This document shows positions 7,216-48,341 of a stretch of 64,000 nucleotides of DNA, in pieces; positions within the stretch are counted from its first letter, which is position 1; each line of letters starts with the position of its first letter. The stretch spans positions 3,296,001 through 3,360,000 of the forward strand of contig OZ244170.1 of NCBI GenBank assembly GCA_965216565.1, given 5' to 3'. The translations under genes and the position numbers were made by a program. The notes beneath the pieces are model-generated. The model saw only the letters and a program-made list of their open reading frames with translations, did not search any database and was not told the DNA's origin. The DNA is from Bythopirellula sp. (GTDB lineage: Bacteria > Planctomycetota > Planctomycetia > Pirellulales > Lacipirellulaceae).

Positions 7216-7217
7216 TC

Positions 7218-19277: not shown

Positions 19278-20711
19278 ATGCGACAAAGACTTCATTGTCG
19301 AATTCGTCTAATATCTCTAAGGAGTTTTTTCGTAGCCGTGGTTGTCTGGCAATATCTCTTGACCAAAGTGGAAGCCCAGGAGGAGAGCATAGTGCAGTGT
19401 GAAAGACAGTTGACTACTGGCGATTGCAATCACATGCTCACGAACGTCGGAGTCTGGTCCCACGATAGTGCCTGGATCTATTACGATGTGAGAAGCGAGG
19501 TTGATGGCTCAAGCTTCGATGGGCTACTTATCGAACGAATCCATGTCCAAAGTGGAAAGGTCGAGACAGTTTACCAGGCAAGCCACGGAGCGTACTGTGG
19601 TGTGGTGACTGCCAATCCTGTTACTAGCCAAATTGTATTTATTCACGGTCCCGAGTTTCCCACCAAGGAATGGAGTTACTCCGCCTGGCATCGTCGTGGT
19701 GTGACACTCCGACCTGAAGTAGAAACAACACCCACAAATCTGGATGCCCGAAATTTTGTGAGCCCCTACACTCCCGGTGCATTGCGCGGAGGTTCTCACG
19801 TCCATACTTTTAGCGGAGACGGGCTTTGGATAAGTTTCACTTATGAAGACCACGTACTGGCAACATCAGACAGCCCACGAAGCGGACGGAACCAAAGAAA
19901 TATAGGCGTCGCTGCACCCTACGGGCCCGTATTGGTCCCGAAGTCGCATCCTAGAAACCATAGCGGCTCGGCATTCAGCGTGCTAGTAACAAAGACAACC
20001 GACGCACCGCGTTCGGGGAGCGACGATATCACTCGAGCCTATAGTGATGCTTGGATTGGAAAAGATGGATATCTTGCAGTGAATGGATCACGACAGAAAC
20101 GAGCTATAGCATTCATCGGCAATGTATTGGGGGCAGATGGTATTGAAGTTCCCGAATTATTCGTAGTAGATATCCCACAGGATGTCACTCGATCTGGCAA
20201 ACATGCACTCTGCGGTACAAAACAGACAAGGCCCTATCCACCACATGGAACGGTGCAGCGCCGTTTGACTCATACAACAGAACGAAAATATCCGGGACTT
20301 GGAGCTGTTCGTCATTGGCCGCGCAGTAGTCCAGACGGTAGCAAAATAGCTTTCTTAATGCGCGACGATGAAGGCAAAACGCAGCTTTGGACTATCTCGC
20401 CGCATGGTAAAGATTTGAATCAGCTCACTCACAACGTTCTTCCGATGGAATCAGCATTCACGTGGCGGCCAGATGGCTTAGCGATTGCGTGCGTTGCGAA
20501 TCAGCAAATCTGCGAGATCCTTGTGGAGACTGGAGAAACCGTTCCGCTCATGGCCTCACCCGAACAAGGATCTTCACTTCGGCCTGAGGCAGTGGTTTAC
20601 TCACCTGATGGCACATTGATTGCCTATATGAAAGAGGTGAAATCGTTAGATGGAGCGAAGACCATCAACCATATCTTCCTGACGCGTTCTCAGTTCGCCT
20701 TAAACCGCTAA
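19278..20711 (+). CDS. DUF3748/YidR-family TolB-like beta-propeller protein
   Basis: HMLTNVGVWSHDSAWIYYDVR, PGALRGGSHVHTFSGDG..SFTYEDH, RHWPRSSPDG. Confidence 0.8.
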   Translation: MRQRLHCRIRLISLRSFFVAVVVWQYLLTKVEAQEESIVQCERQLTTGDCNHMLTNVGVWSHDSAWIYYDVRSEVDGSSFDGLLIERIHVQSGKVETVYQASHGAYCGVVTANPVTSQIVFIHGPEFPTKEWSYSAWHRRGVTLRPEVETTPTNLDARNFVSPYTPGALRGGSHVHTFSGDGLWISFTYEDHVLATSDSPRSGRNQRNIGVAAPYGPVLVPKSHPRNHSGSAFSVLVTKTTDAPRSGSDDITRAYSDAWIGKDGYLAVNGSRQKRAIAFIGNVLGADGIEVPELFVVDIPQDVTRSGKHALCGTKQTRPYPPHGTVQRRLTHTTERKYPGLGAVRHWPRSSPDGSKIAFLMRDDEGKTQLWTISPHGKDLNQLTHNVLPMESAFTWRPDGLAIACVANQQICEILVETGETVPLMASPEQGSSLRPEAVVYSPDGTLIAYMKEVKSLDGAKTINHIFLTRSQFALNR

Positions 20712-20909
20712 AACGTCAAATCTGGCGAAGCGGATCTATCTAACATTTGCAAACACTTCATCACTCTATTGTGGGCTGGCGATTTGTACGCAAGATTCTT
20801 CTCAACGGACACTGGGGATTTCGCTACATAAATCCCTTGCAGATCTCAGGTTAAGCTGATTCTTGAACTGACTACCCAGGCAAACTTTCCAGAGATATTG
20901 GTTAAATCA

Positions 20910-21018: not shown

Positions 21019-21762
21019 ATGACACTTTCTAAAACTGCCTATCAACACGTCCACGGTCTCATCGCTGATGGGTCTTTCGCACCAGGGGACGTTATTTCTG
21101 AGTCTGCTATTGCCAAAGAATTGGGCTTCAGCCGCACGCCAATTGGTGAAGCTTTGCGGCGGTTGGCAGATGATGGATTAGTAAAACAAGTCCCTCGTTT
21201 CGGCACGATCGTGAGGGAGATTCCTTTGAAAGAACTCATCGAACACTTTGAAGTCCGTGAAGCATTGGAAAGTTACGCGGCAGGTAAAGCAGCCGAAAGA
21301 ATTAGCGAAGATGCACTTCAAGACTTGAAAAAGATTTGCAAGAGAATCGATCAAGAAATTATTCAAGCCGCTTCTGAAGGTAAGAGTTGCATCGAAGGAG
21401 AGGCTCTTCGACGCTTTCTTTCTGCCGACATGGCTTTTCACCTGCTGATAATTTCCGCAGCGAGAAATAAGCAATTACTTAAGTTTGCTAGAAGAACTGG
21501 GAGCATCGCGGAGGTGTTCCACGCTCGCCGTGGCAGCCACACGCTGCAAAGAGTCAAAGACGCAAACACGATGCACGAAAAGATTGTTGATGCTCTCATA
21601 AAGAGAGATAGCGAGGCGGCATCAAAATTGGCAGCCGAGCATGTCCGATTCTCTGCCGCGATTTCCTCAGCAGCCGAGGAGACAGGCAGAATGAGTAATG
21701 AGCTGGCATCGCTAAGCGGTCTAGATCTTAAAAAGTTGTTTCAGGAGGAAGAGGGGGAGTAA
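21019..21762 (+). CDS. GntR-family (FCD) transcriptional regulator
   Basis: ISESAIAKELGFSRTPIGEALRRL wHTH; EVREALE, DMAFH, HEKIVDAL FCD motifs. Confidence 0.92.
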   Translation: MTLSKTAYQHVHGLIADGSFAPGDVISESAIAKELGFSRTPIGEALRRLADDGLVKQVPRFGTIVREIPLKELIEHFEVREALESYAAGKAAERISEDALQDLKKICKRIDQEIIQAASEGKSCIEGEALRRFLSADMAFHLLIISAARNKQLLKFARRTGSIAEVFHARRGSHTLQRVKDANTMHEKIVDALIKRDSEAASKLAAEHVRFSAAISSAAEETGRMSNELASLSGLDLKKLFQEEEGE

Positions 21763-21913: not shown

Positions 21914-23095
21914 ATGAGAATATTACGGTTTGCATTTTCTTTGATCACACTGATCTGCATGAGTGAAGTTGCTTTCGCGCAACTAACAGATTCGCTAGTC
22001 AGATATTACAAGTTGGATGATGTAAGCAACTCTTCATCGGCCAGAGACGAAGTAGAGCTAGACGGCGTCGGAGTGAATGATCTGACCGTCAGCTCTAACA
22101 GCAGGAAGTCATTGCCCACCGCTGGGGTAACCGGGCAAGTTGGAACTGCTTGGGACTTCGAAAAAAACCCTACGGTTGCCGTCGGCGACTATGACAACAG
22201 TGGAGGGCCGCTTAACGGACTCGATTTTCTTGTCTGGCAACAAAATGCTGGAACATCCAATGTTTTACCAGGAGACCCTACCCCTGGCACGGTTGATAGC
22301 TCAGATCTGCTGAATTGGGAGAATCGATACGGTCTCGATCCGAATACTGCACCCCTGTTGGATGACCAAGGTTTTCCTTTGGGGCAATTCTTGGATGAGG
22401 GCAACAGTGTGTGGGATGGTACGAATGCAATCAACGGGGCATTTTTCTCCATTTGGGTAAGGCCTGAATCGCTTAATGCTGGAGTTGGTGAAGAATCACG
22501 AAATGTGATCATTAGTGAAGACAGTGCTGGCCAAGACTTCTACGTCCGTTCCACTGAAGGTGGAAAAGTCGAAATGGCCTTCGAGGGCATCGGAGAAGTT
22601 GTTACGGACAATGTGGAGCTTTCTGTCGGGCAATGGTCGCATATCTCCGGAGGCCTGATCGTCGATGACGGTTTTGAATTTACTAACACACTGATTCTAT
22701 ATGTCGACGGGGTTCAAGCAGGTTTCAATGACTTTGCATCTGTTAATACCCCAGATTCGTTTAATGACCTGACTCTAGGAATTCAAGATGACCGAGCGGA
22801 CGACATTGACGAAGTTGCAGACCCTAACAATCCGTTGCTGGGTTATTTTGCTAGAACTTCGTGGGATGGACTCATGGATGAAGCTGCGTTCTGGAGGCGA
22901 GCACTTTCATCAGCGGAGGTAGTCGACATCTATGACCGTGGAGTACTAGGTCAAGGGCTGTTAGACCCACCGCCAGTTTTAGCTCTTGCTGCAGTTCCCG
23001 AGCCAACCACTGTCACCTTGCTCGCAACGGGTTTGCTGGGATTGGTAACTATCCATTCGCGCAAGAAATCTCGTACTGGAAAGGCGTTTTCGTAG
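21914..23095 (+). CDS. LamG-like jelly-roll protein with inserted dockerin-like segment, PEP-CTERM
   Basis: Signal peptide; LVRYYKLDD, GQWSHI, LYVDG, WDGLMDEAAFWRRALS; AVPEP + TM. Confidence 0.75.
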   Translation: MRILRFAFSLITLICMSEVAFAQLTDSLVRYYKLDDVSNSSSARDEVELDGVGVNDLTVSSNSRKSLPTAGVTGQVGTAWDFEKNPTVAVGDYDNSGGPLNGLDFLVWQQNAGTSNVLPGDPTPGTVDSSDLLNWENRYGLDPNTAPLLDDQGFPLGQFLDEGNSVWDGTNAINGAFFSIWVRPESLNAGVGEESRNVIISEDSAGQDFYVRSTEGGKVEMAFEGIGEVVTDNVELSVGQWSHISGGLIVDDGFEFTNTLILYVDGVQAGFNDFASVNTPDSFNDLTLGIQDDRADDIDEVADPNNPLLGYFARTSWDGLMDEAAFWRRALSSAEVVDIYDRGVLGQGLLDPPPVLALAAVPEPTTVTLLATGLLGLVTIHSRKKSRTGKAFS

Positions 23096-23138
23096 CGCAG
23101 ATGCATTCACCTAATTTCTATTTGGAGGGATAAGACTA

Positions 23139-23996
23139 ATGAAGATGTTTGGAATTGATGCAATGGGACTATTGGTGCCCGGGGCGCTGTGTGTGAGCTT
23201 AGTGATGAGCACACCCACTTCCGCGGCACTCATCACCGACAATTTGGTTCGACACTATAAACTTGATGAGTCAGCCGGCGCGACCGAAGCCATCGATTCT
23301 ACTGGCAATAGCAATTTGTCAGAAGACAACGACGTGAACCCAGGTAAGCTTCCTGCGCCTGGAGCGACCGGTATCATCAACGGTGCCTGGGACTTCGATC
23401 GAGCCAATGGCGAATTTCTTGACGAAGGTGACGCGATCTGGGGCGGTACCATAAATGTATCAGCCTCGATTTGGCTAAACCCTGCGTCTCTCACTGCCGC
23501 CGGTTCAAATGCCTATACCGTGTTCTCCGAAGACTCCTCCTCATTTGCCAACAAAGATGCAGTAGTACAAGTATCAGATGATGGTGCTGTTACTTGGACT
23601 CTCGAAGGCATCGATTCCCTTACTTCAGCAGATGGTCTAATAACTAACGGTGTGTGGAGCCATCTTGCTGTGGTACGCAACGGAACGGATATGAGGATTT
23701 ACGTGAACGGCTCATCTGTGGCATCCAAGGCGATCAGTGGCACTACGACAGTCGATTCAGTAAATGATTTGATGCTTGGCGTTGCCGAAGATAGCGATGG
23801 ACAAGACCCCTGGGATGGATTGATGGACGACGCCGGTTTTTGGGAGCGTGCGCTAAGTCCCGGCGAAGTCTCTGCAATCTATCAGCAGGGGTTACTTGGG
23901 AACGACCTTACTGCTGTACCAGAGCCGTCAGCTTTCTTGATGCTCTGCACAGTGGGATTATTTGTCCCTTCATGGTGTAGGTGTCGCAAGGGTTAG
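23139..23996 (+). CDS. LamG-like jelly-roll protein, PEP-CTERM
   Basis: LVRHYKLDE, GVWSHLAVV, IYVNG, WDGLMDDAGFWERALS; AVPEP + TM. Confidence 0.8.
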   Translation: MKMFGIDAMGLLVPGALCVSLVMSTPTSAALITDNLVRHYKLDESAGATEAIDSTGNSNLSEDNDVNPGKLPAPGATGIINGAWDFDRANGEFLDEGDAIWGGTINVSASIWLNPASLTAAGSNAYTVFSEDSSSFANKDAVVQVSDDGAVTWTLEGIDSLTSADGLITNGVWSHLAVVRNGTDMRIYVNGSSVASKAISGTTTVDSVNDLMLGVAEDSDGQDPWDGLMDDAGFWERALSPGEVSAIYQQGLLGNDLTAVPEPSAFLMLCTVGLFVPSWCRCRKG

Positions 23997-24083: not shown

Positions 24084-27000
24084 TTGGATGAGGTTTGGAA
24101 AGCAGCCGAACTTGTGAGAACAAGCGTGAAAGTGAAAGTTCACTTTCAGGTGTTGCTACAGCTTGGACTTATTTATTTCACTTTTTTTGTTTGTCAAATG
24201 CAGTCAACAGCAGTTGGCCAAGATTTCTCGCTTGTTCCCGGTTCGGTTATTGGCTATCGCGCTGCCACGACTGACCAATACCTTTCTTCGCCCTCAATAG
24301 CCATTTTGCCGAATGGTGACTATGTCGCGAGTCATGACCTGTTTGGTTCTGGTTTTGACGATGAAACTTCTGGCCTGACTACGGTCTACCGTTCAACAGA
24401 TTCTGGAGATTCATGGACTAAAGTGTCTGAAGTTGCCGACATGCACTTCTCATCATTATTTGTTCATGACAATGAATTATACGTACTCGGCAGCAGGCAG
24501 AGCGGCGGCGATTTTTTGATTCGCAAGTCTACCGACAACGGTTCAACCTGGACGACCCCCGCGGATCCCAACTCAGGACTAATCTTGCCCGGTAGTTTTG
24601 GCGGCACTTCGCACAACCCCGTGGTATACAACGGACGTCTTTGGGCCATGACACATGCCCAAGGTAGTCCCAAAGCACTATCTGCTCCTGTGGGATCTGA
24701 CTTACTGAAGGCAACTTCTTGGACGCTGAGCAATCATATACCTAAGCAAACAAGTGATCTGGATGGCTACCCTTTTTCCGATTTTGACCGTTGGACTGAG
24801 GCTCAGCCAGTCGCTTCGCCTGATCAAGGCGTTGTTTATTTACCGAAACTTGCTGACTCAAGATATACAGCTCATCTCCGTGCCAATTCAACCACAGGTA
24901 ATCTTACTTTTGATCGAGACAATGATTATGCGTTTATGCCAGGCGCTGAAAAGAAGTTCGGCATCTCCTACGATTCTGTGTCACAGAAATTCTGGGCTAC
25001 ATCAAATCCTGTCTTGGAAGAGCATGAAGATGACAATTCCGACATAGGTGGTCGGACCAGAAATACGGCTGCGGTTCTGTCTTCTTCGGACCTTCGCGAC
25101 TGGAAACTGGAATCTGTTTTTCTCTATCACCCGGACAGAGCATTTCATGCATTTCAATACTTGAACTTTGCGTTCGACGGCGACGACATGGCCATAGTCT
25201 CGCGAACAGCATTCGATGATGGCCTCGGTGGAGCGGACTCTTATCACGACAATAACTTCATGACATTCCACCGCGTTGAAGACTTTAGGAATCTGACACC
25301 AACGCAAGTTCTCGTAGCTGATAGTGGAAACGATCGCGTCGTGCGGTATCAGACGCTGGATGGCATGCCTTGGGCTCCGTTGGAGGACTTTGCTGCGGGT
25401 AGCTACGCAGGTGCAACCCTAGATCAGCCTTTTGGGGTATCGCAGATTGCCAATGGCGACGTCTTTATTGGTGAGCAAAAAGTGGGGGGGCGAATTCTTA
25501 GATTTGATGCTGCCGGCAATTTTTTGCAGGTCGTCGCAACCGAGGGAGTCGAGTTTACCGGTAATCCCGAAGCATTGGTGACTGGTCCGGATGGCAAACT
25601 CTATCTATCGGCGGCATTCGGTGGGGCGAATAGTGATCGCGTTTATCGGATTGATCCTGATTCTCAGCAAGTCGAACTATTCATCGACACAACATTTAAT
25701 GGGGGGAGTAAGTCGTTCGACGACCCACGGGGCCTTGCTTTTGACGATCAGGGAAATCTCTACGTTGCTGATCGCGATGGAACTGATACGGGTAGTTCGG
25801 CGCAAAACCTGGTTCGCAAGTTCAACGGTCAAACCGGAGCTTTTATCGAAAACCTGTTTGTGATCAACAAGCCGATCGGTCTCGATTGGGACGAAGCGGG
25901 TGGGGAACTCGTGCTTTCGGCGGAATCGCCCACGGAACTTCACGCATTAGGTATCAGCGGGACTTCAGCACCACTCTACACAACCGCGAGTGACTTGGGA
26001 TTGGTACTCGACCTAGAGGTTATCGATGGCACAGTCGTGTGGACCGATTTCAACAATGGAAGAATTGACAAACTAACTGGTACGGATCAACGCGAGACTG
26101 TTTCCGAAGGATTGAGTTCGCCGGGCCACTTGCTCGAAGTTACGCAACCGAATCAGCGAACTTGGACTTCCTCTAGCGATGGCCGTTGGCGTGAAGGACA
26201 GAACTGGAACTGGCTATGGGGCATCGCCAACGAATCGTCCGAAGTCGCCGTTTTCAATAGCATTGGCGGCGGATCGGTGAACGTAGAGCTGCTTGATGAA
26301 ACTATAGTAGGCGGGATTCGTTTTCACGGCTCAGCAAGCCACATCCTAATCGGAACATCCACGCTCGAAATCCCCGCAGAATCCACAGACAAATTTGTGC
26401 AAGTCGTTGGGGGCCAACACACAATTCAGACACCCCTCAAGCTCGCGAGTGGCAGTGTGATTGATATTTCGTTCGGCTCGGAACTTGCTCTAGACAATGT
26501 AACTCTTGTAACCGCCGAGAGCATAACCTTGTCGGGAGCTGGCAAGTTGGTTGTGGAGGGGTCTCTTAGCCTGAATGATTCAAGTGGACCAGGAGTTCTT
26601 GTAACAGAGGACTCTCATCTATCCGGCTCTGGCAGTATTGGTGGTAACGTCACCAACCTCAGTGGGACCGTGGGACCTGGAACGAGCGCGGGAATGCTTA
26701 CCATCACTGGTGACTACAACCAGCTTCCCGAGGCGGAGCTGCTCATCGAGATAAATGGCACGAATCATGGTGAGTTTGGTCTGTTGTCTGTCGGTGGTGT
26801 CGCAGCACTAGATGGCACTCTCTCGATCCAGTTTGGCAATCCTGTTGGCTATACACCTACAGCAGGAGATGCATTCGAGTTTGTGTCGACGGGCCTTGGT
26901 CTCGAAGGTGGATTTAAAGAGTTTGACTTACCCGCTCTTTCGGGAGATTTGTTCTGGGCACTTCAGAGTGATTCAATGACACTTACTCTCTTCATCGGGT

Positions 27001-27233
27001 CCGGAGCACTGGAGGGTGACTTTGATCAAGATGGCGATGTTGACGGCATCGACTTTCTCGCCTGGCAAAACAATCCTAGCCTTGGCACGTTGTCGAGTTG
27101 GAGCTCCAACTACGGAGCGATCGCTATTGGGTCGTTAGTCGCTGCCGCGACAGCAGTTCCTGAACCTGAGTCGTGTCTGCTGATGCTGATGGCACTTTCA
27201 GCACTCTCAATCAGAACGGAATATATGCTATGA
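24084..27233 (+). CDS. Multidomain sialidase-fold (Asp-box) protein + NHL/Vgb propeller + beta-helix + dockerin-like repeat + PEP-CTERM
   Basis: Asp boxes RSTDSGDSW and [56 protein letters not shown]. Confidence 0.75.
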
Positions 27234-28258
27234 ATCTGAGCAGTCCGAATATTCGTCGAACTCACACCGGCTTTACGCTAGTAGAACTCTTAGTGGTAAT
27301 TGCGATTATCGGCGTGCTAGTGGCACTTCTCTTACCGGCAATTCAGGCAGCTCGCGAAGCGGCTCGCCGAATGCAGTGTTCCAATAATCTTCGGCAGCTT
27401 GCCCTTGGGTTGCAAAACTATCATTCAGCTTTTAGTCAATTTCCTGCCGGAGCCATTGCGCCAAATATTCGCTTAGGGCCAACACATCCAGATAATGAAG
27501 GCTTCAACATTAGCTGGCACGCGCGTATTCTCCCACACATCGAACAGCAGAGTATTTATGAGCTAATCGATTGGACAAAGGGATATGACGCGGGCGAAGA
27601 AGCCGTGGGAGATGTAAAGCCGGTAGCTCTGCAACCAGTGAAAACATTCTTCTGTCCAAGCACTGATCCAGAATCACAACTAAGTTTATTCAATTCCTCG
27701 GCCATGTCTGACGGCACGCCGACGTACACTCAACACTACAATGGTGTGGCTGGTCCCATCATTAATCCGCCCCAGGCGGGCGAACTCTATCGCGACCCCG
27801 ATACAGACGTACTTCGAGAAAACAGAATCTCTCCCGGATGCACAGGCGCGAATCGCAGCAATTTCTCTCAGATGGGCGTCTTGTATCCGAATTCTGAAGT
27901 CAGCATCAGCCAAATGAACGATGGGTCTTCAAACACCCTGGCCATCGGTGAACGCAATCTTGGGGAAGCAGCCTGGATAGCAGGAATGAGCAATACGTAC
28001 AACTGGCCATGCGATGCTACAGGCTTCAAAAATATGGAATACACCATCAATTTCTGTAAAGAGCAATTGGGGAAAAGCAATGGTGATCCCTTTGATTGCT
28101 TCATTTATGGAAATTCGAGACCGTTTAACAGTGAGCATCCTGGTGGTGCCCAGTTTGCTTTCGCTGATGGATCTGTAACGTTCATTAGCGAATCCACGGG
28201 CATTGAGGTGCTACTGGCACTAGCGAGTCGAAATGGAGAAGAGGTCTTCGACCGTTGA
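27230..28258 (+). CDS. DUF1559 prepilin-type protein (H-X9-DG C-terminal motif)
   Basis: [58 protein letters not shown] coupling to the upstream gene. Confidence 0.92.
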
Positions 28259-28291
28259 AACTCTTTCGGCTCTTCGTTTGGTAGGAAAAGT

Positions 28292-28777
28292 ATGTGGCAC
28301 AAAATTAATCGAAGCTCTCACAAGACTGCGTTACAGCGGATAGCTAATGGCAATGCGTTACTTGGAATGTCTGTCTTGATGGCATTTGTCGCAGGATGTG
28401 ATGGGGGTATTGCTCAATACGAGGTGACAGGGCAACTAACTTTTGAAGGTGAACCTGTCCCGCAAGGAAGGATTATTTTCACGCCACGTACTGGTCCAGA
28501 TGGCTATGGAGCTCAAGGTGTGGCACGTGTTGACGCCGGCAAGATAATATCGCATGACGAAAAACGCATGATAGGTGGGAAGTATCAAATCCAGATCATT
28601 GGGTTTGACGGCATACCTTACCAGGATGGAAGCGGAGCAACCATTCCCTATGGACGACCCTTATTTCTTCCATTGCGAACCGAGCTTGAATTACCTACCC
28701 AGGACTCTAGTCTCCTCGTTGCAATCAGTGGGACACAGGGGAAGTATGAAGTCAACGCAGAAGTTGTAAGCGAGTAG
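28292..28777 (+). CDS. DUF1559-associated small lipoprotein (carboxypeptidase-regulatory-like)
   Basis: Lipobox VAGC; VTGQLTFEGEPVPQGRIIFTP; GKYQIQI. Confidence 0.75.
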   Translation: MWHKINRSSHKTALQRIANGNALLGMSVLMAFVAGCDGGIAQYEVTGQLTFEGEPVPQGRIIFTPRTGPDGYGAQGVARVDAGKIISHDEKRMIGGKYQIQIIGFDGIPYQDGSGATIPYGRPLFLPLRTELELPTQDSSLLVAISGTQGKYEVNAEVVSE

Positions 28778-39886: not shown

Positions 39887-41569
39887 ATGCCCTACTCGAT
39901 TGGAGTTGACTACGGAACGAGCAGCGTCCGAGCAATGCTAGTTGACGCCTCTAATGGGGCTGAACTAGCGACTGCAGTATACGAGTACCCCAGTGGTGTC
40001 GAAGGTGTCTTGATCGACCCGAGCGATCCTAACATAGCCCGCCAACATCCTGGTGACTACATCGACGGCTTTTACCACGCGGTGGCCGATGTAGTTCATA
40101 AAGCTGCGGGAATCAAAGGTTTCTGTGTGGAGGACGTTGTCGGTATCGGAATCGATACGACAGGTTCAACACCCATTCCAGTTAATAAACAAGGTATTGC
40201 GCTGGGTACGTTAGAAGAATTCAAATTGAATTTGAATGCGCAAGCGTGGCTCTGGAAAGATCACTCCTCCTACACCGAAGCGGAGAAAATTACTCGAGCT
40301 GCCGCGAATGCGAATCTACCCTATTTGGCGAAGTGCGGTGGTGTCTATTCATCTGAATGGTACTGGTCAAAGATTCTGCACTGTATGCATATCGATAGGA
40401 AAGTGGCGGAAGCCACCTACTCTTGGGTTGAACTTGCCGACTATGTTCCAGCCTACGTCACAGGTAATTCCGACCCCAATCGGATGTCGCGGAGCATCTG
40501 CGCTGCTGGACACAAGGCGATGTATCATACTGATTGGGGTGGATTACCAAGTGCTAGTTTTTTAGACAGCATCGAACGAGGATTGTCCCGTTTTCGCTAC
40601 GTGACAACTGCTGTCCCCTCTGACCGACTGGCTGGACGACTTACCGAATCCATTGCTGAGCGAGTTGGCCTGGTAGCGGGAATTCCTGTTGCCGTGGGAG
40701 CATTCGACGCTCATATGGGTGCCGTTGGGGCTGGATGTCGCGAGGGAACACTCGTCAAGATCATTGGGACGAGCACCTGCGATTGCATGCTCGCGCCAAT
40801 GACAAAAGCGCTGCCAGACATTCCCGGGCTTTGCGGCATTGTTCCGGAATCGATTGTACCGGGAATGTATGGTTTAGAAGCAGGGCAGTCTGCAGTGGGG
40901 GATATATTTAACTGGTTCATCAAACAGCTCTGCCCAGGCGAATATGAAAGCGACGATGAAGCTCACAAGGCACTTTCTAGCGCTGCCGCAAAGCTACTTC
41001 CTGGCGAATCGGGGCTGATTGCTCTTGATTGGAACAATGGCAACCGCACGATTCTGGTCGACCCTTTGCTGACCGGCCTACTTATCGGTCAGACTCTTCA
41101 TACCACCGCGGCAGAAATTTACCGGACATTGATCGAAGCGACTGCTCTCGGTGCATTAACAATAATCAACCGTATCGAAGAATACGGAGTGAAAGTCGAA
41201 CAAGTAATCAATTGTGGAGGCATTGCTGAAAAGAGCCCTCTGGTAATGCAAATCTATGCCGACGTATGCAATCGTCCGATGCGTATCAGTCGATCTGGTC
41301 AGACCTGTGCTCTTGGAGCAGCAATTTTCGGTGCAGTCGTGGGCGAAGTTTACCCGTCGGTGGAGGCAGCACAGCAAGAGATGACAGGCATTAAGGAGGT
41401 TGAGTATACGCCGATTCCAGAGAACGTCGCAATTTATGAGCAACTGCACAACATCTACCGCACCTTACATGATGCATTCGGTTTAGCTGAAAACACGCAA
41501 GCGTTGTCGGGAGTAATGAAGAATCTTCTCAATATTCGCAGTAGCGTTCGTTCAGGCAAAAGTAGCTAG
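39887..41569 (+). CDS. araB: Ribulokinase (FGGY family)
   Basis: IGVDYGTSSVR, GIDTTGSTP, WKDH, CAAGHKAM, GAFDAHMGAVG, LEAGQSAVGD, LDWNNGNR. Confidence 0.9.
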   Translation: MPYSIGVDYGTSSVRAMLVDASNGAELATAVYEYPSGVEGVLIDPSDPNIARQHPGDYIDGFYHAVADVVHKAAGIKGFCVEDVVGIGIDTTGSTPIPVNKQGIALGTLEEFKLNLNAQAWLWKDHSSYTEAEKITRAAANANLPYLAKCGGVYSSEWYWSKILHCMHIDRKVAEATYSWVELADYVPAYVTGNSDPNRMSRSICAAGHKAMYHTDWGGLPSASFLDSIERGLSRFRYVTTAVPSDRLAGRLTESIAERVGLVAGIPVAVGAFDAHMGAVGAGCREGTLVKIIGTSTCDCMLAPMTKALPDIPGLCGIVPESIVPGMYGLEAGQSAVGDIFNWFIKQLCPGEYESDDEAHKALSSAAAKLLPGESGLIALDWNNGNRTILVDPLLTGLLIGQTLHTTAAEIYRTLIEATALGALTIINRIEEYGVKVEQVINCGGIAEKSPLVMQIYADVCNRPMRISRSGQTCALGAAIFGAVVGEVYPSVEAAQQEMTGIKEVEYTPIPENVAIYEQLHNIYRTLHDAFGLAENTQALSGVMKNLLNIRSSVRSGKSS

Positions 41570-41704: not shown

Positions 41705-43699
41705 GTGATGAGAAGCATTCTAGGTCTCATGGCGATCGCAATGAGCTTTTACACGGACACCTCGATTAAAGCCTTCGAACGTATCAAATACAATCATCCA
41801 GGACTCACGGTCGATTTGGGAGTTGGCCTTTGGGCTTGGCCACTTCCCATGGACTGGGACAGCGATGGCGACCTGGACCTGATTGTCTCATGCCCCGACA
41901 AACCGTATCACGGTAGCTATTTCTTTGAAAACACGGGAGATGATTCAAGACTTCCCGTATTCCAAGCCGGTGTTCGAGTAAGCGGTGGAGTCAAGAATGC
42001 ACAGGTCTCCTATGTGAACGGTCAGCCGCGTGTACTGAAAGGACAAAACCCAGACAGAGGACGCTGCGTTGAATTCGTAAACTTTCTGGGTGAAGGTTTC
42101 AACGAATCACACGAGTTAGATTATCCGGCCGTAAAAGTTGGCGAAGGACGCGTACGGGCGAATCAATGGAAATATGTAGATTTCGACGATGATGGTGCGC
42201 TGGACTTGATCCATGGCGCCGGATTCTGGGGCGACTATGGTTGGGATAATGCCTTCGATAGTGAAGGAGAATGGCAACGCGGTCCGCTTCACGGCTATGT
42301 GTACGTCTTGCGGAACAAAGGATCGAATAAACAACCCGACTACGAAACTGCATATCGGCTGCAGGCGGCGGGCAAAGACGTGGATGTCTACGGAATGCCT
42401 TCGCCCAACTTTGCCGATTTTGATGGCGATGGAGATCTTGATCTTCTATGTGGCGAGTTTCTGGATGGTTTTACGTACTTCGAAAACGTCGGCACAAGAT
42501 CGAAACCGGAATACTCGGCTGGCGTCTATCTAACGAATGCAGGCAAAAAGGTTGCCATGCATGTGCAGATGATTACACCCGTAGCTATTGACTGGGATCG
42601 TGACGGTGACATCGATCTGGTTTGCGGTGATGAGGATGGACGAGTCGCATTTGTGGAAAACACCGGAGCGATTGAAGATGGCACTCCGCTCTTCGAACAA
42701 CCTGTCTATTTCCAACAAGTCGCCGAGGACGTCAAATTCGGGGCGCTAGTAACCCCGTTTGGGGTCGATTGGGATAACGACGGAGATGAAGATCTGATTT
42801 GCGGGAATACCTCTGGCAATATTGGATTCATCGAGAATCTAGATGGAGGCTATCCACCCAAATGGGCGGCACCGGAACTATTGGTTAGCGAGGGTGAAAC
42901 GATTCACATTCAGGCGGGGCCTACTGGTTCGATCCAGGGTCCTTGCGAGGCCAAGTGGGGGTACACGGTTCTAAACGTCGCAGATTGGGACCACGACGGG
43001 CTTCACGATTTAGTCGTCAACAGCATTTGGGGCAAAGTCATTTGGTACAAGAACACAGGTACCAAACACGAACCGCAACTTGCAGCCGCTCGACCTGTCC
43101 AAGTCGAATGGGCAGATGAACCCATGAAACCTACCTGGAATTGGTGGAATCCAGACTCGCATGAATTAGTCACTCAATGGCGCACTACACCTTGCGTGAT
43201 CGATTGGGACAAAGATGGGCTCAACGATTTGGTGATGTTGGACCACGAAGGATACCTGGCACTCTTTAAGCGAGTTGAACGCGACAATCAACTCATGCTT
43301 TTGCCCGGCAAGCGTATATTTCACGGAGGTACCTTCGATAACAAGCACAAGATCGTTGAAACTAGTATTGAAGATAAAGAACGTGCACTGCTCCGCTTAA
43401 CTAGAAATCAGGCCGGTGCCTCGGGAAGACGCAAGCTTTGCTTCTCTGACTGGACTGGTGATGGCAACTTAGATTTACTCGTCAATAGCGAGAACACGAA
43501 CCTACTTGAGAATGTCGGCACAAGAGACGGCAAGATTCTGTTCAAAGACAGAGGCAAGCTGGGCACACGTACCTTGGCTGGGCATAGTACATGTCCGACG
43601 ACTGTTGATTGGAATCGGGATGGAAAACCGGACTTAGTATGTGGTGCCGAAGATGGACGTCTTTACTATTTGCAGAACCCAAACTCGGAAGAGAAGTAG
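41705..43699 (+). CDS. Secreted FG-GAP/VCBS-repeat protein
   Basis: Many D[WF]DxDGDxDL repeats; YNHPGLTVDLGVGLWAWP; signal peptide. Confidence 0.85.
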   Translation: MMRSILGLMAIAMSFYTDTSIKAFERIKYNHPGLTVDLGVGLWAWPLPMDWDSDGDLDLIVSCPDKPYHGSYFFENTGDDSRLPVFQAGVRVSGGVKNAQVSYVNGQPRVLKGQNPDRGRCVEFVNFLGEGFNESHELDYPAVKVGEGRVRANQWKYVDFDDDGALDLIHGAGFWGDYGWDNAFDSEGEWQRGPLHGYVYVLRNKGSNKQPDYETAYRLQAAGKDVDVYGMPSPNFADFDGDGDLDLLCGEFLDGFTYFENVGTRSKPEYSAGVYLTNAGKKVAMHVQMITPVAIDWDRDGDIDLVCGDEDGRVAFVENTGAIEDGTPLFEQPVYFQQVAEDVKFGALVTPFGVDWDNDGDEDLICGNTSGNIGFIENLDGGYPPKWAAPELLVSEGETIHIQAGPTGSIQGPCEAKWGYTVLNVADWDHDGLHDLVVNSIWGKVIWYKNTGTKHEPQLAAARPVQVEWADEPMKPTWNWWNPDSHELVTQWRTTPCVIDWDKDGLNDLVMLDHEGYLALFKRVERDNQLMLLPGKRIFHGGTFDNKHKIVETSIEDKERALLRLTRNQAGASGRRKLCFSDWTGDGNLDLLVNSENTNLLENVGTRDGKILFKDRGKLGTRTLAGHSTCPTTVDWNRDGKPDLVCGAEDGRLYYLQNPNSEEK

Positions 43700-43758: not shown

Positions 43759-45144
43759 ATGAGAATCTGTGTTGTTCAAACCCTCCTTATCGCTGCCTTA
43801 TTTGGTGACTTAGCTAGCGCAGACGAAAATATCACGGCGTCGACGAGTGCGACGATTGCGCAGCTACAAAAGAAGACTGGAAAAGAAGGATCGACAAACA
43901 CGTTGCTGGGTTATGAGAATCCCGGAGATGGCGGCGGCGGACTTTTCTATTGGTCCTCTAATGCACCGAAGCCAATTGATGGGGGGACAATCGTTCGTTG
44001 CAACAATGGCGGGGCGTGGGTTCGGATTTTCAACGGACCGGTACATGCTGCTTGGTTTGGCGTATTGCCAACAGCGGAAAGGGACACTCTAACTCAAGAA
44101 GAGGTTGACCGTACTACCCATCGGTTAGAGCAGGCACTCCATGCAGCCGCTGGTGACACCTTGCGATTCGGGCAAGGCACATTCTATCTGTCTAAAACGC
44201 TCATCATTCCACCTAATACGCTGATAACAGGAGCAGGCCCACAAGATATTTGGACGCGCAGCCCAGGTGGCACGACAATACGACCATATGGGCCAGGAAA
44301 AGCCCAATTATGGCAAGACACGGGTGTGAAAGAGAACGATATGCTCCGGCCTCTATTCGTATGTGGCGGTAGCAATGTCCGATTTCGAGAAATAGGACTT
44401 CTTACTCAAGCCGACGAAAAGTCGGGCTCCACGGCATGGGATGTTGGCATTTTGCTACCAGCAACAAAACGCTGCTCGATCGACCACGTCAGCATCAGAG
44501 GTTATTGGCAAGTAGCCGCCTGTCTGCTCGATGCGACTTGGTCGGACAGGCACAAACGTATGATTGCTCTGCACAAGGGGCGAATAACGCCATCGTCGAT
44601 GAACGAATGTACAATCCTCCGTTGTTTTCTCTCAGGCAAATGGGGAGTTATGATTCGCGGAGCAGACAAGAGAGTCTATGACCCACGAGACTTTCGAGAT
44701 TACGACAAAACAGGAATGTCTGAACGTTGGGACGAGTGGATTTGGTCCTATGGTGGCACCTCCGATATTGAAATCATCAGTTGTCGAATCGAAGGAAAAG
44801 CTCCCAAAAGTCTACAGCACCTAGATGGAGGTGCATTCTACAGCGATGCCCCAATGGTAAATGGTGCGGCTGCTGGACAGGGGCACCGTATTATTGGTTG
44901 CAATTTACGTACGAACACCCGTTACATGGTTAAGCTCGGCTCCTCTAATCGAGATACTTTTATCGGCTGCTATTTTGAGGGCGGCTGGTGCGACCGACAA
45001 CCGAACGGCAAGTGCCAAGAGGCCCCCTCGTTTATGACAAACGACGCAGAACATACTGGCCAGACGCGCTTTATTGACTGTCGTTTCACAACTTGCGATA
45101 TCAAGTCGGAGTGGAACTATAAGAAGACACACACTTGGCCGTGA
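43759..45144 (+). CDS. Secreted right-handed beta-helix (pectin-lyase-fold, tailspike-like) protein
   Basis: Signal peptide; LGYENPGDGGGGLFYW..DGGTIV..GAWVR; AAWFG; GTFYLS; Cys/Ile-ladder repeats. Confidence 0.6.
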   Translation: MRICVVQTLLIAALFGDLASADENITASTSATIAQLQKKTGKEGSTNTLLGYENPGDGGGGLFYWSSNAPKPIDGGTIVRCNNGGAWVRIFNGPVHAAWFGVLPTAERDTLTQEEVDRTTHRLEQALHAAAGDTLRFGQGTFYLSKTLIIPPNTLITGAGPQDIWTRSPGGTTIRPYGPGKAQLWQDTGVKENDMLRPLFVCGGSNVRFREIGLLTQADEKSGSTAWDVGILLPATKRCSIDHVSIRGYWQVAACLLDATWSDRHKRMIALHKGRITPSSMNECTILRCFLSGKWGVMIRGADKRVYDPRDFRDYDKTGMSERWDEWIWSYGGTSDIEIISCRIEGKAPKSLQHLDGGAFYSDAPMVNGAAAGQGHRIIGCNLRTNTRYMVKLGSSNRDTFIGCYFEGGWCDRQPNGKCQEAPSFMTNDAEHTGQTRFIDCRFTTCDIKSEWNYKKTHTWP

Positions 45145-45263: not shown

Positions 45264-48200
45264 GTGACATCAAAGAATATGGTATTGTTGGCCTTATTTG
45301 GAATTGCTCTCGACCTACATTTTACTAGCTCCGCAGTTGCAGACCTGCTACCGCCTAATACTCTCCGGATAAGCGAAGGGTTTAAGAACCCTCTTGGCTT
45401 CTATGACAAGGAACCAAGCTTTTCTTGGCGAGTTCCCGCCGACTCACAAGTGAAAAGCCAAAGCGCTTACCGTATCGTCGTCGCAAGCGACCCCGCACTT
45501 TTGCCAGAAAAGGCTGATTTGTGGGACACGGGTAAAACAGACTCAAACCAATCCGTCTGGGTGCGCTACTCGGGGCACTCGCTTGACTCTCGGAACTTAG
45601 TCTACTGGCAGGTGAAGTATTGGGATGAGAAGGATCGCCAGTCCTCCTGGAGTGAACAAGCGCATTTCGAGTTGGGCTTGCTCAATAACAGCGATTGGAA
45701 AGGCAAGTGGATACAAATGCAGGGCCCTAAGGCCTTTCCTCCTCCGCAAGTATGGTTAGAAGACCCTCAGCAAAGAGATCGCGAGGGTATAAATATAACG
45801 ATCAACCGTGCTGAATACGGAATCCACACCGCAAATGGCGAGACGGTTGATATTTCCGACTCAATTCGGCAGATGGTACATCAAGACAAATACCTTCTTC
45901 AAGTGTCTGATCGGTTAGCCAAGCAGAGCACTTTTTCTGCTGGCGAAGCGAAACTGTTGATTGATTACGATCTCAATCTCAAGCATGTTCGTAAACTGCT
46001 TACCCAAGGGACCACGTTCAATTTACTATCGCGAGAAGAGTATGTGACCCTTGTTCCGGAATATTTCCGAAAGCAGTTCGAGCTGACTGGCCCCATAAAG
46101 AAGGCAAGGTTGTACATTACCGCTCGCGGACTCTATCAGGTCCACATCAACGGCGAGCGTATTGGTGAAGATCATATGACGCCTGGTTGGACAACGTATA
46201 ACAGTTGGATTGAATCGCTCACTTACGATGTAACCGAACAACTTCGCAAAGGGAATAACGTCATTGCTGCCATTCTGAGTGAGGGTTGGTATGCCGGTCG
46301 CATTGGCAGTCCAGGTAAATATACCGAAACCCATCCAGAGCTCCTCTGTCAACTGGAAGTTACGTTTTCAAATGGGAAGAAAAAGGTCATTGTGACTGAT
46401 CGGAATTGGAAGGCCACCAACCAAGGACCAATTCGTGTCTCCAGCATCTTCGATGGCGAGGTCTACGATGCAAGAAAAGAGATGGCTGGATGGAAGTCTA
46501 CCGGATTCGATGATTCTCAGTGGAGCCCAGTCACTGCATCTGACCTTGATCCGAACGTTTCAATTGCTCCTAAACAACAGCCACCCGTTCGCGTTACGGA
46601 GAAGATAAATGCTTTACACGTAACCGAACCTGAGCCCGGCAAGTTCGTCTTTGATTTTGGCCAAAACGTGGTAGGCAAACCAAGCATTAAGATCCCGGTG
46701 AAGAAGGGCGAGACGATCAGAATCAGATTCGCTGAAATGCTCAATCCGGGTGGGACTCTATATACTGAGAACTATCGTAGTGCACGATCCAGCGACTATT
46801 ACGTAGCAGCAAGTGACAAGTCGATTACCTGGGAACCTACGTTCACCTTTCATGGTTTTCGCTATGTCGAGCTGTCCGGATTCTCAACTGATGTCGGGCC
46901 TCAATCTAATTGGGTAACGACTCATGTGTTGCATACGGACTTTGAAAGAACCGGAAGGTTCACCAGTTCACATGAGAAGCTCAATAGACTGCAAGAGAAT
47001 ATTATCTGGGGCCAAAGGGGAAATTTCCTAGATATACCGACCGATTGCCCCCAGCGGGACGAACGCCAAGGCTGGACAGGTGATGCACAAATCTTCTGTC
47101 CCACGTCGTTATTCAACTACGACACCCATGCATTTTGGAAAAGCTGGTTGCGTAGTATGCGAGCAAATCAACGCGAAGATGGCATTATCCCTTGGATTGT
47201 ACCTTCCAGTAGAGAGTTCAAGAAATTTGGTAGCGCAGCCTGGGGAGACGCAGCGGTTGTCGTGCCGTGGGAAGTTTATCTTCGAACAGGTGATGTTTCA
47301 GTACTTGAAGAAAACTATCGGATGATGCGGCGCTGGGTTGCAGCATACGAGCCTGATGCGAAAAATCACATAGTTAATCGCGATGGATTTGGAGATTGGC
47401 TGCAACCGTACTCAAAGGGGGATCTTCAAAAGAAACGCGGAGTATTAGTTGGTGAAACTGCTTTGGAATTGATCGCCACAGCGTACTACGGGCGAGGGAC
47501 AGAAATCATGCAGCAGGTCGCGTCAGTTCTAGGGCGTGACGAGGATGCCAATTTTTACAAAGAAGAAAGGTCAAAGATCCGCGATGCCTTTTCCCGTGAG
47601 TTTTTCGACCAGCAGGGGCGACTTACTACCAAATTTGAAACGCAAACCGGTTATCTACTGGCTCTCGCATTCGATTTGCTCAAGCCTAGTCTTAAGGCAG
47701 GAGCGATTCGAAACTTATTGCGTGAGGTCGACGAGGGTGATGGACACCTCCGTACAGGTTTCGTTGGCACACCCTTGCTCGCACCAGTTCTCGACGAGAA
47801 TGGCCACTCTGCAAGGGCTTACAGCATCCTTTTCAAGGAGTCATACCCTTCCTGGTTCTTTTCGATAAATCAGGGTGCAACGACTATGTGGGAACGCTGG
47901 AATAGTTTCAGTCATGCAGATGGCTTTGGCGATGCCAAGATGAACTCTTTCAATCATTACGCCTACGGAGCTATCGGCCAATGGATGTATGAGCGAGTTG
48001 CCGGCTTAGCGCCAGACTCAAAGCACCCTGGCTATAAGCATTTCTTCATTCAGCCGATACCCGGCGGGCCCTTGACCAAAGCCCGAGCAGAGCTTGAAAC
48101 GCCCTATGGCAAGGCGGTGAGCGGTTGGCAACGAGTCGAAGATTCGATCGTGATCTACGCCACTGTTCCAACCAATTCCACAGCAACACTTATTGTACCG

Positions 48201-48341
48201 CAAATAAAAGAAGGTGAACCCAAGCTCAGTCTGGATGGTAAGCCTTGCTCGTTGGATCGGCACGATAACCAATATAGATATGAGATCGCTCCAGGTAAGT
48301 ACGAGTTCATCCTGAAAACGGGATCGTTACCACTCGAATAG
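45264..48341 (+). CDS. GH78 alpha-L-rhamnosidase
   Basis: ARLYITARGLY, DFGQN, FTFHGFRYVE, PTDCPQRDERQGWTGD, GATTMWERW, MNSFNHYAYG. Confidence 0.93.
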   Translation: MTSKNMVLLALFGIALDLHFTSSAVADLLPPNTLRISEGFKNPLGFYDKEPSFSWRVPADSQVKSQSAYRIVVASDPALLPEKADLWDTGKTDSNQSVWVRYSGHSLDSRNLVYWQVKYWDEKDRQSSWSEQAHFELGLLNNSDWKGKWIQMQGPKAFPPPQVWLEDPQQRDREGINITINRAEYGIHTANGETVDISDSIRQMVHQDKYLLQVSDRLAKQSTFSAGEAKLLIDYDLNLKHVRKLLTQGTTFNLLSREEYVTLVPEYFRKQFELTGPIKKARLYITARGLYQVHINGERIGEDHMTPGWTTYNSWIESLTYDVTEQLRKGNNVIAAILSEGWYAGRIGSPGKYTETHPELLCQLEVTFSNGKKKVIVTDRNWKATNQGPIRVSSIFDGEVYDARKEMAGWKSTGFDDSQWSPVTASDLDPNVSIAPKQQPPVRVTEKINALHVTEPEPGKFVFDFGQNVVGKPSIKIPVKKGETIRIRFAEMLNPGGTLYTENYRSARSSDYYVAASDKSITWEPTFTFHGFRYVELSGFSTDVGPQSNWVTTHVLHTDFERTGRFTSSHEKLNRLQENIIWGQRGNFLDIPTDCPQRDERQGWTGDAQIFCPTSLFNYDTHAFWKSWLRSMRANQREDGIIPWIVPSSREFKKFGSAAWGDAAVVVPWEVYLRTGDVSVLEENYRMMRRWVAAYEPDAKNHIVNRDGFGDWLQPYSKGDLQKKRGVLVGETALELIATAYYGRGTEIMQQVASVLGRDEDANFYKEERSKIRDAFSREFFDQQGRLTTKFETQTGYLLALAFDLLKPSLKAGAIRNLLREVDEGDGHLRTGFVGTPLLAPVLDENGHSARAYSILFKESYPSWFFSINQGATTMWERWNSFSHADGFGDAKMNSFNHYAYGAIGQWMYERVAGLAPDSKHPGYKHFFIQPIPGGPLTKARAELETPYGKAVSGWQRVEDSIVIYATVPTNSTATLIVPQIKEGEPKLSLDGKPCSLDRHDNQYRYEIAPGKYEFILKTGSLPLE

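Follow-up and report, generated by a model that had tools for sequence, protein, structure and literature searches.

A candidate Kdo catabolic cluster carried by a putative integrative island of a Bythopirellula genome

The DNA analysed here (the window) is a stretch of 64,000 nucleotides of Bythopirellula sp., taken from contig OZ244170.1 of assembly GCA_965216565.1 and corresponding to G000:C1:3296001-3360000 of a complete 5.21-Mb genome. Its content of DUF1559, DUF1580 and PEP-CTERM proteins and its nearest homologs are typical of Planctomycetota. All long open reading frames (ORFs) between window positions 19278 and 48341 are encoded on the + strand and follow one another at short distances; among them are a regulator, a symporter, an aldolase, an isomerase, a kinase and several large proteins with features of glycan-degrading enzymes. 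A preliminary description of this DNA interpreted the cluster as a system for scavenging and degrading Kdo (short for 3-deoxy-D-manno-octulosonate), carried on a mobile island. The genes that it listed were all recovered on the + strand at the same positions, and those on which the interpretation turns are the following.

21019..21762, + strand: GntR/FCD regulator (PF00392 and PF07729)
24084..27233, + strand: protein of 1049 aa with a sialidase-fold domain, an NHL propeller, a dockerin-like stretch and a PEP-CTERM-like tail
28803..30332, + strand: SiaT-like Na+/solute symporter, proposed ulosonic-acid importer (SSS, PF00474, 160 bits)
30347..31408, + strand: DHDPS/NAL-family class I aldolase, proposed Kdo aldolase (PF00701, 206.8 bits)
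33007..36024, + strand: paralog of the sialidase-fold/NHL protein, 1005 aa (NHL, 49 bits)
38108..39754, + strand: FucI/AraA-superfamily isomerase, proposed D-arabinose isomerase (fold and sub-threshold Pfam matches)
39887..41569, + strand: AraB-type ribulokinase (NF003154, 646.4 bits; cut-off 428)
45264..48341, + strand: glycoside hydrolase family 78 (GH78) alpha-L-rhamnosidase (Bac_rhamnosid6H catalytic domain, 377.5 bits)

The best relatives of the symporter in the PDB are 5nv9 and 5nva (E 3.2e-76, 260.8 bits), the next match scoring 161 bits. In the available part of PMC5931594, 5nv9 is described as the Na+/sialic-acid symporter SiaT of Proteus mirabilis, whose substrate-binding residues are T58, S60, T63, Q82 and R135, with S60, T63 and R135 holding the substrate carboxylate. 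In the HMMER alignment the SiaT residues S60 (S63 in the window symporter), R135 (R138) and N247 (N249) are kept and T63 is replaced by Ser (S66), while T58, Q82, G81 and F243 are changed to Y, L, S and G, respectively. Given that the carboxylate binders are kept and the other contacts are changed, we read the symporter as a probable importer of a carboxylated sugar other than N-acetylneuraminic acid (Neu5Ac).

The neighbouring aldolase belongs to the PF00701 superfamily, as its Schiff-base Lys, its catalytic Tyr and its GTTGE motif align with K165, Y137 and G46-E50 of E. coli NanA and with DapA. At the position of R138 in E. coli DapA (YNVPSRTG), which we take to be the active-site entrance arginine, the window protein has Leu (YNIPELTG), as has E. 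coli NanA. Its operon orthologs carry L, M, H or C at this position, and the genome's own DapA-like copy keeps the Arg (YNIPGRTG). The TIGR00674 score is likewise below the cut-off for DapA (190.9 versus 206.15 bits). Three DHDPS-family genes are present in the genome, of which the copy at 1.536 Mb, with 308 bits, is likely the true DapA. The NanA equivalog models scored far below their cut-offs (TIGR00683, 100.8 versus 382; NF003164, 121.5 versus 281), and at NanA positions 191-192, presumably the D191/E192 pair of the sugar pocket, the window aldolase has D-E and its orthologs have E-x. Lacking the DapA arginine, the window protein looks lyase-like; a second DapA was rejected as its identity because the arginine is missing. 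The closest solved relative is 4xky (E 1e-75, 258 bits), deposited as the dihydrodipicolinate synthase of B. thetaiotaomicron, a name that implies lysine biosynthesis. This structure shares YNMP-x-x-TK, GPEE and GGVNGGAN with the operon orthologs and reads YNMPTHTKV, with no Arg at the DapA R138 position. Since it carries the motifs of the aldolase family and lacks the arginine, the deposited name may be wrong. The available parts of PMC4113996 and PMC3878776 hold nothing relevant on the B. thetaiotaomicron locus of 4xky.

The protein encoded at 38108-39754 had been called a FucI-type isomerase in the preliminary description, a name that stands for the fold but not for the family: the matches to Fucose_iso_C (27.5 bits) and Fucose_iso_N1 (22.9 bits) fall below the respective cut-offs of 29.3 and 28. 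An AlphaFold model of the protein (predicted local distance difference test, pLDDT, 90.5) was compared with solved structures by Foldseek, which placed the Bacillus pallidus D-arabinose isomerase 3a9r best (E 3.7e-20), followed by L-fucose isomerases and then by L-arabinose isomerases. The superfamily members 3a9r, 4c20, 1fui and 4f2d were matched at E 3.7e-20 to 1e-13 with template modelling (TM) scores of 0.45-0.55 and 9-15% identity, and no other fold was found below E 1e-3 in this search. A sequence search of the PDB with the isomerase gave no match. The protein is a member of the superfamily and not a FucI. More than 8000 homologs exist, the 120 best of which are at least 69% identical, and members with 56-74% identity occur in Planctomycetota, Verrucomicrobiota, Acidobacteriota, Bacteroidota, Actinomycetota, Chloroflexota and other phyla.

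Genomic neighbourhoods of the isomerase were surveyed in 600 stretches, of which 598 were confirmed and 80 loci were kept. The commonest neighbours in these 80 loci are FGGY kinases (17 ORFs). DUF2961 genes lie near the isomerase in three loci (L028, L067 and L074); DUF2961 is the glycoside hydrolase family GH172, which includes exo-D-arabinofuranosidases (PMC10509167, PMC10115798), and a polysaccharide utilization locus (PUL) for D-arabinan, with an isomerase and a kinase leading to D-ribulose-5-phosphate, has been proposed (PMC10509167). A link of the isomerase family to D-arabinose contexts is supported by these gene neighbourhoods. FGGY kinases, mostly of the ribulokinase type, were also seen directly beside more remotely related isomerases in G100:C133, G049:C11, G036:C239 and G014:C26, the identities being 44%, 50% (in a partial match) and ~33%.

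The kinase exceeds the cut-off of the ribulokinase AraB equivalog NF003154 and falls just under that of TIGR01234 (565.3 versus 583.25). Neither the kinase nor the isomerase has a close second copy in the genome. Six of seven isomerase-linked FGGY genes tested are NF003154 ribulokinases as well (600-706 bits), the seventh being XylB-like. The kinase of the corresponding operon in another planctomycete, G190, belongs to TIGR01315, the FGGY family of pentulose kinases (702 bits, cut-off 408.7), and reaches only 266.6 bits with NF003154. That two kinase families fill the same operon slot argues that this step would phosphorylate a pentulose. The characterised members of the TIGR01315 family are, we assume, D-ribulokinases. 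In a quick tree of 50 kinases, for which only SH-aLRT branch support was calculated and from which the long-branch row L053 was left out, nine isomerase-linked kinases group in a separate clade (SH-aLRT 92), with the window kinase outside it. As regards AraB itself, the available part of a preprint (bioRxiv 10.1101/2025.02.06.636802) reports that it suffices for growth of enterohaemorrhagic E. coli on D-ribulose.

Conservation of the gene set was evaluated in 301 genomes, namely 300 of Planctomycetota and G000, with closer comparison of 18 loci from aldolase-holding genomes and two isomerase-kinase loci (G270 and G255). Aldolase orthologs with 36-46% identity occur in 22 of the 301 genomes. 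In G190 the genes are contiguous and in the order of the window: GntR, followed divergently by SSS (58% identity), aldolase (44%), isomerase (64%) and kinase. G207 likewise has a contiguous set, arranged as GntR, ribulokinase, isomerase (67%), SSS (54%) and aldolase (40%), with a sulfatase/BNR_2 fusion 3.5 kb from the operon. G115 combines a ribulokinase, a sialidase-like protein and the aldolase, and pairs of SSS and aldolase genes are also found in L096, L097 and L098. The association extends to Bacteroidota, where isomerase, aldolase (45%) and SSS (51%) are immediate neighbours on the Roseivirgaceae contig L024, and where a single PUL of Pedobacter aquatilis (L030) holds SSS (46%), a DHDPS-family gene, an AraC regulator, the isomerase, DUF3826 and SusC/D.

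Genes for AraA and AraD were sought throughout the genome. The only match to PF00596 lay within a frame of 749 aa at 1.83 Mb, no match to TIGR00760 was obtained at E<=1e-15 (eight candidates scored), and PF02610 gave no canonical AraA at E<=1e-10 (nine candidates scored); a canonical AraA-AraB-AraD pathway for L-arabinose was thus not found in G000 at these thresholds. Within the window, no nanE/nanK/nagA, araD, fucK/fucA or rhaABD is present among the annotated ORFs of at least 100 aa, as the preliminary description had noted. In a hand tally of the genome sample, whose members are related and not independent, genes with at least 145 bits to TIGR00760 were counted as AraD-like. Such a gene is present in only two of the 14 genomes with an isomerase of at least 62% identity (G192, 313 bits; G207, 147 bits and on another contig), and in two of the nine of these 14 that have AraB over the cut-off. 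All 15 genomes with canonical AraA (PF02610) are AraD-like- and AraB-positive. Where AraB over the cut-off occurs without an isomerase of the window's family, 28 of 46 genomes have an AraD-like gene. Overall, AraB over the cut-off was found in 66 of the 301 genomes and AraD-like genes in 40, none of which attains the curated cut-off of 389 bits, and canonical AraA was not found in any of the 14 genomes with the isomerase. In five isomerase holders that lack an AraD-like gene, a class II aldolase (PF00596, 81-169 bits) is present that gave no TIGR00760 match at E<=1e-15.

The products thought to act outside the cell were evaluated by domain and structure comparison. The 1049-aa and 1005-aa proteins are 37% identical over ~1010 residues and share one layout, with an Asp-box domain at the N-terminus, an NHL propeller, and a VPEP tail at the C-terminus. 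The sequence of the sialidase-fold domain shows Asp-box motifs, and its AlphaFold model (residues 45-405 of the 1049-aa protein, pLDDT 90.1) aligned with GH33 sialidases at Z 30-32 and a root-mean-square deviation of 2.8-3.1 A over 293-311 residues, which bears out the sialidase fold attributed to the two proteins before; Foldseek also lists GH93 arabinanases for this model. Residues 45-405 belong to a family of ~400 aa named 'sialidase family protein' or 'exo-alpha-sialidase', with members at 40-48% identity in Dyadobacter, Pedobacter, Olivibacter and Tautonia. In other proteins this domain is fused to sulfatases, FG-GAP repeats, DUF3748/S9 peptidase-like domains, GH43, esterases or NHL propellers, the fusion to DUF3748 being seen in P0314, P0351 and P0354. 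Because FG-GAP and DUF3748, which are encoded by separate genes here, are fused to the sialidase-like domain elsewhere, these parts of the cluster are tied together. The earlier assignment of the two large proteins as surface-anchored finds partial agreement: an exosortase gene is present elsewhere in the genome and the 1049-aa tail comes near the PEP-CTERM cut-off of 20.7 bits (19.0, borderline), but both tails lie below it, that of the 1005-aa protein with a weak 10.8 bits. The 1005-aa gene overlaps the start of the following FG-GAP gene by 13 nt (36012-36024).

For the rhamnosidase, all five Pfam GH78 domains scored over their cut-offs. The gene matches five other ORFs of the genome, ranging from close to distant, among them a second GH78 at G000:C1:2141769-2144756 with 53% identity. 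A fusion of GH78 with the sialidase-like domain was not found among the 120 best long homologs listed. RG-II (rhamnogalacturonan II) chain C is alpha-1,5-L-Rha on Kdo (PMC12282258), and BT1013 of Bacteroides thetaiotaomicron, according to the available part of a review (PMC13501991), acts on this chain with an N-terminal GH78 rhamnosidase and a C-terminal Kdo hydrolase. Judged from that description of BT1013, GH78 is tied there to a Kdo-releasing enzyme as proposed for the island, although BT1013 is one fused protein, whereas the GH78 and sialidase-fold proteins of the island are encoded by separate genes.

We infer Kdo as the substrate because of the combination of a pentulose kinase, an importer of the ulosonic-acid type and a pyruvate aldolase. 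In the proposed mechanism, a system under GntR control would use an acidic glycan containing a ulosonic acid. Proteins of the outer layer, comprising the sialidase-fold/NHL, FG-GAP, DUF3748, beta-helix, GH78 and DUF1559 proteins, would depolymerise and capture the glycan, for which RG-II chain C, prasinophyte scales and bacterial capsules or lipopolysaccharide (LPS) are candidates. The SiaT-like Na+ symporter would import free Kdo, and the NAL-like class I aldolase would cleave it to pyruvate and D-arabinose. The distant FucI/AraA-superfamily isomerase would convert D-arabinose to D-ribulose, and the AraB-type ribulokinase would yield D-ribulose-5-phosphate, which enters the pentose phosphate pathway with no need for an epimerase. 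The core route from Kdo to pyruvate and D-ribulose-5-phosphate is the best supported explanation of the cluster, with a probability that we put at roughly 0.55, and every step of it is one that we infer. That the pentose would be D- rather than L-arabinose is supported by the absence of AraD and AraA, by the genome tally, by the fold of the isomerase and by its DUF2961 neighbours.

Nearly all Gram-negative bacteria synthesise Kdo, as do plants (in RG-II) and scaly green algae. A Kdo aldolase activity (EC 4.1.2.23) that converts Kdo to pyruvate and D-arabinose was described in the 1960s. This is the reaction that the 30347-31408 protein is proposed to catalyse. In the literature searched, mostly outside subscription journals and supplements, we found neither a gene for Kdo aldolase nor a Kdo catabolic cluster. 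Of the known catabolic systems, the nan clusters (sialidase, SiaT/NanT, NanA, NanR, NanE/NanK) resemble the island in that it has a sialidase-fold protein, a SiaT-like SSS, a NAL/DHDPS aldolase and a GntR/FCD regulator, but NanE, NanK, NagA and NagB are missing and an isomerase and a ribulokinase lie downstream of the aldolase instead. The aldehyde product should accordingly be a pentose and not N-acetylmannosamine (ManNAc). Catabolism of Neu5Ac was rejected, given the lack of NanE, NanK, NagA and NagB and the changed SiaT pocket. D-arabinose is degraded in E. coli by FucI, followed by D-ribulokinase or by FucK/FucA. As in that route and in the D-arabinan loci (PMC10509167, PMC10115798), the island places an isomerase of the FucI/AraA fold before a pentulose kinase that would form D-ribulose-5-phosphate. 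Unlike the isomerase of E. coli, that of the island is not a FucI by sequence; the D-arabinan loci, which are likened here by their published description and whose isomerase family may differ from that of the island, obtain D-arabinose from a D-arabinofuranosidase, whereas the island would obtain it by aldol cleavage of an imported acid.

Several observations weigh against the Kdo reading or leave room beside it. The cytoplasmic genes would be equally consistent with a different 2-keto-3-deoxy acid from which a pentose is formed. What ties the isomerase to FucI is the modelled fold together with sub-threshold Pfam matches, and alignment of its profile by hhalign was not significant with either E. 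coli FucI (probability 1.8%) or AraA, a further point against the name FucI-type. The isomerase (at least 62% identity) occurs in only 6 of the 22 aldolase-holding genomes, and in one planctomycete family the aldolase is present in 13 of 15 genomes and the isomerase in 3 of 15; the aldolase is so frequent without the isomerase that in those genomes it would either act independently of it or have a different substrate. After the FGGY kinases, the most frequent neighbour in the 80 isomerase loci, present in nine of them (L005, L007, L016, L040, L041, L043, L045, L047 and L049), is a class-II-aldolase-like gene (262-294 aa) directly downstream that overlaps the end of the isomerase gene, and in none of these nine is an AraB-type kinase found beside the isomerase. 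The partner is weakly similar to L-ribulose-5-phosphate 4-epimerase (NF005123, E 1e-11 to 1e-16 in three of four scanned, far below cut-off) and also weakly similar to the aldolase half of bifunctional rhamnulose-1-phosphate aldolase/dehydrogenases, and in those organisms it might belong to a route for L-arabinose or to one through a ribulose-1-phosphate aldolase. A hidden Markov model (HMM) of the nine partner genes found only the same 749-aa frame in the Bythopirellula genome. In the kinase tree, the window kinase falls with the isomerase-adjacent kinase of Aeoliella (L046) in a clade of six rows (support 99); three other kinases of this clade come from genomes that have an AraD-like gene, which in two cases lies next to the kinase. 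From this placement the window kinase looks recently recruited from an L-arabinose-type lineage. As to the outer layer, an invariant Ser-Pro (S25 P26 in alignment A2) stands where Sialidase26 has R-I-P, the aligned segment scoring only 1.6 bits, so that the RIP arginine of the GH33 triad is not present; the other two arginines were not mappable. The sialidase-fold copies of the window gave no match to Pfam BNR_2 (PF13088) in the genome's own scan, the sialidase-like domain is often fused to sulfatases in other proteins, and none of the other loci examined showed a GH78 next to the operon. The interpretation offered in the preliminary description therefore divides: its cytoplasmic core gains support from several comparisons, but rhamnosidase uncapping and release by the sialidase-fold proteins stay conjectural, given the Ser at the RIP site and the lack of conservation of GH78.

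In a rival explanation, the four genes would be co-regulated without catalysing consecutive steps. The aldolase and the symporter would then handle another 2-keto-3-deoxy acid, such as a nonulosonic acid (Kdn, or a legionaminic- or pseudaminic-type acid), Dha or a KDG-type acid, and the isomerase and kinase would process a separate neutral sugar of the same glycan, for example D-arabinose or a sugar of L-fucose or L-galactose configuration. In line with this, 16 of the 22 aldolase holders have no isomerase and most of the 80 isomerase loci have no aldolase; the changes at SiaT T58, G81, Q82 and F243 speak against Neu5Ac and leave the acid unspecified; and sulfatases, which often occur as fusions or neighbours, suggest sulfated marine glycans. 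We nevertheless consider this explanation unlikely, since the genes are tightly contiguous in G190, G207, L024 and the window, across two phyla, since no genes that would process the aldehyde formed from a nonulosonic acid were seen in the cluster (no NanE/NanK, N-acylglucosamine epimerase, mannose or hexosamine enzymes), and since a pentulose kinase suits the C5 product of a C8 acid.

The origin of the kinase bears on a further explanation, in which the isomerase would be a non-canonical L-arabinose isomerase that forms an L-arabinose route with AraB, the 4-epimerase step being performed by an unrecognised enzyme and the aldolase and SSS belonging to an unrelated acid-sugar module. The AraB-type kinase with its supported six-row clade, the AraD-resembling gene after the isomerase in nine of the 80 loci, and the pectin-type contexts of L041 and L005 (DUF3826, pectate-lyase-like and OiaK/OiaX-like genes), which are rich in L-arabinose, would all agree with it. 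It is made rather improbable by the genome, which has neither an AraD-like gene nor the class-II-aldolase-like partner, and by the tally, with AraD-like genes in 2 of 14 isomerase genomes versus 15 of 15 genomes with canonical AraA; moreover, the fold is nearer to D-arabinose and L-fucose isomerases than to AraA, and the isomerase family adjoins genes of the GH172 D-arabinofuranosidase family. Very improbable, finally, is that the DHDPS-family protein is no sugar-acid aldolase at all but a second DapA or a dehydratase/deaminase, the cluster being a general glycan-capture island with an arabinose module. The deposit of 4xky as a dihydrodipicolinate synthase and the TIGR00674 score of 190.9, near the cut-off of 206.15, point that way, against which stand the absence of Arg at the DapA R138 position from 4xky and the whole aldolase family, the better DapA elsewhere in the genome (308 bits) and the constant pairing of the aldolase gene with a SiaT-like symporter. 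Of the two loci with pectin-type contexts, L041 and L005, we also observed that the partner gene lies near OiaK-like and OiaX-like genes of the apiose-pathway type, a pectate-lyase-like gene and DUF3826.

A wider claim can be attached to the Kdo route, which we put forward tentatively and as possible rather than probable. The cluster would be the first complete Kdo pathway at gene level, with an importer, a Kdo aldolase, a new D-arabinose isomerase family, a recruited ribulokinase, a new family of arginine-poor sialidase-fold exo-enzymes and PEP-CTERM/pilin-like capture proteins, borne on a transferable island of an alga-associated planctomycete that feeds on Kdo-rich glycans, for instance those of prasinophyte scales, RG-II or bacterial envelopes. 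A hint at algae comes from sequencing runs: contigs ~99.8% identical to the window (~45 differences in 20 kb) extend over all 30 bins of 28400-48341 in X5, labelled 'algae metagenome', and in X6, a run with another organism label, X1-X4 being runs of the organism's own label. This coverage fits an algal source. No RNA run is listed among the holders of the locus. If the Kdo route is true, genes would be put on the orphan activity EC 4.1.2.23, a function would be defined for an isomerase family of more than 8000 homologs now annotated only as 'fucose isomerase', the naming of the solved structure 4xky would be corrected, and a marker would become available for the recycling of Kdo within carbon turnover in the sea and in soils. 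Location on an integrative island would mean that the trait can move as one unit.

The features that delimit this island are as follows.

13740..13821, strand not applicable: left att-like direct repeat, a copy of the tRNA-Arg 3' part and 39 nt downstream
14258..18492, - strand: island maintenance genes, namely a 975-aa protein, a DUF1580 protein and two small ORFs
49446..50624, - strand: tyrosine integrase (PF00589, 57.6 bits; phrog_1, E 2.5e-30)
50709..50822, - strand: tRNA-Arg(CCG) at 50748-50822 with the right att-like repeat at 50709-50790

The two copies of the repeat are identical at 78 of 82 positions, with an exact run of 50 nt at 13772-13821. The right copy consists of the 3' 43 nt of tRNA-Arg(CCG) and 39 nt downstream, so that the repeat ends inside the tRNA. 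Given that the copies flank the region, the element measures ~37 kb. An integrase that adjoins a tRNA and a repeat of the tRNA 3' end at the far side are the features of a tRNA-integrated genomic island, and they bear out the mobile island of the preliminary description. The 975-aa protein has a weak primase/helicase match (phrog_239, E 6e-5) and DUF1580 corresponds to PF07618; besides these two proteins, the two small ORFs and the integrase, the content of the island is the catabolic cluster. G+C is 0.47-0.51 within the island and 0.49-0.55 in the flanks, a small difference. On this layout, the catabolic cluster is the cargo of a candidate integrative island of 37 kb at tRNA-Arg(CCG). In run X1, a single Logan contig of 36,999 bases spans window positions 13772-50770, beginning with the left 50-nt repeat and ending 30 nt inside its right copy. 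Its extent is most simply a break of the assembly graph at the 50-nt repeat; an excised circle was set aside as a reading of this contig.

The remaining members of the cluster, which the preliminary description did not list, are all on the + strand.

19278..20711, + strand: DUF3748/PD40 beta-propeller protein (PF12566, 169.6 bits)
21914..23996, + strand: two LamG (concanavalin-like) proteins (PF13385), the first with a PEP-CTERM tail (26.3 bits)
27173..28777, + strand: DUF1559 prepilin-like protein (PF07596, N_methyl, HX9DG-CTERM) and a 161-aa ORF
31451..32966, + strand: second DUF1559 prepilin-like protein (Pfam/NCBIfam) and a 154-aa ORF
36012..38057, + strand: FG-GAP repeat protein, 681 aa (PF13517)
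41705..43699, + strand: FG-GAP repeat protein, 664 aa, an aldolase neighbour elsewhere (orthologs beside aldolase)
43759..45144, + strand: probable right-handed beta-helix depolymerase, 461 aa (weak tailspike matches)

The additions are the DUF3748/PD40 protein, the two LamG proteins, the two DUF1559 proteins each with a small ORF, the two FG-GAP proteins and the 461-aa beta-helix protein. Orthologs of the 664-aa FG-GAP protein (51-58% identity) adjoin the aldolase in L092, L095 and L098; a sequence search of the PDB with this protein gave no match, and the Atlas returned uncharacterised FG-GAP clusters only. The 461-aa protein has weak matches to the capsule tailspikes 8iq5 and 8iqe (E ~4e-6), and its nearest Atlas clusters carry PF12708 or PF13229. 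Homologs of the GntR regulator (33-39% identity) adjoin the operon in L085, L086, L097 and L098. Elsewhere in the genome, at G000:C1:716007-718396, a paralogous mini-module is made up of a GntR (33% identical), a DUF1559 protein and a small ORF (30% to the 161-aa ORF), which suggests that a unit of regulator, pilin-like protein and small protein may recur in this genome.

Two further gene sets were noted in the flanks of the island. Just to its left, at window positions 5872-11919, lies a pilus set of the Tad/Flp type, with a T2SSE ATPase, two T2SSF proteins and three TadE/TadG-like proteins. Near the right end of the window, at 60745-63993, a fusion protein of 1082 aa is encoded that combines CheB, CheR, PAS and histidine kinase parts.

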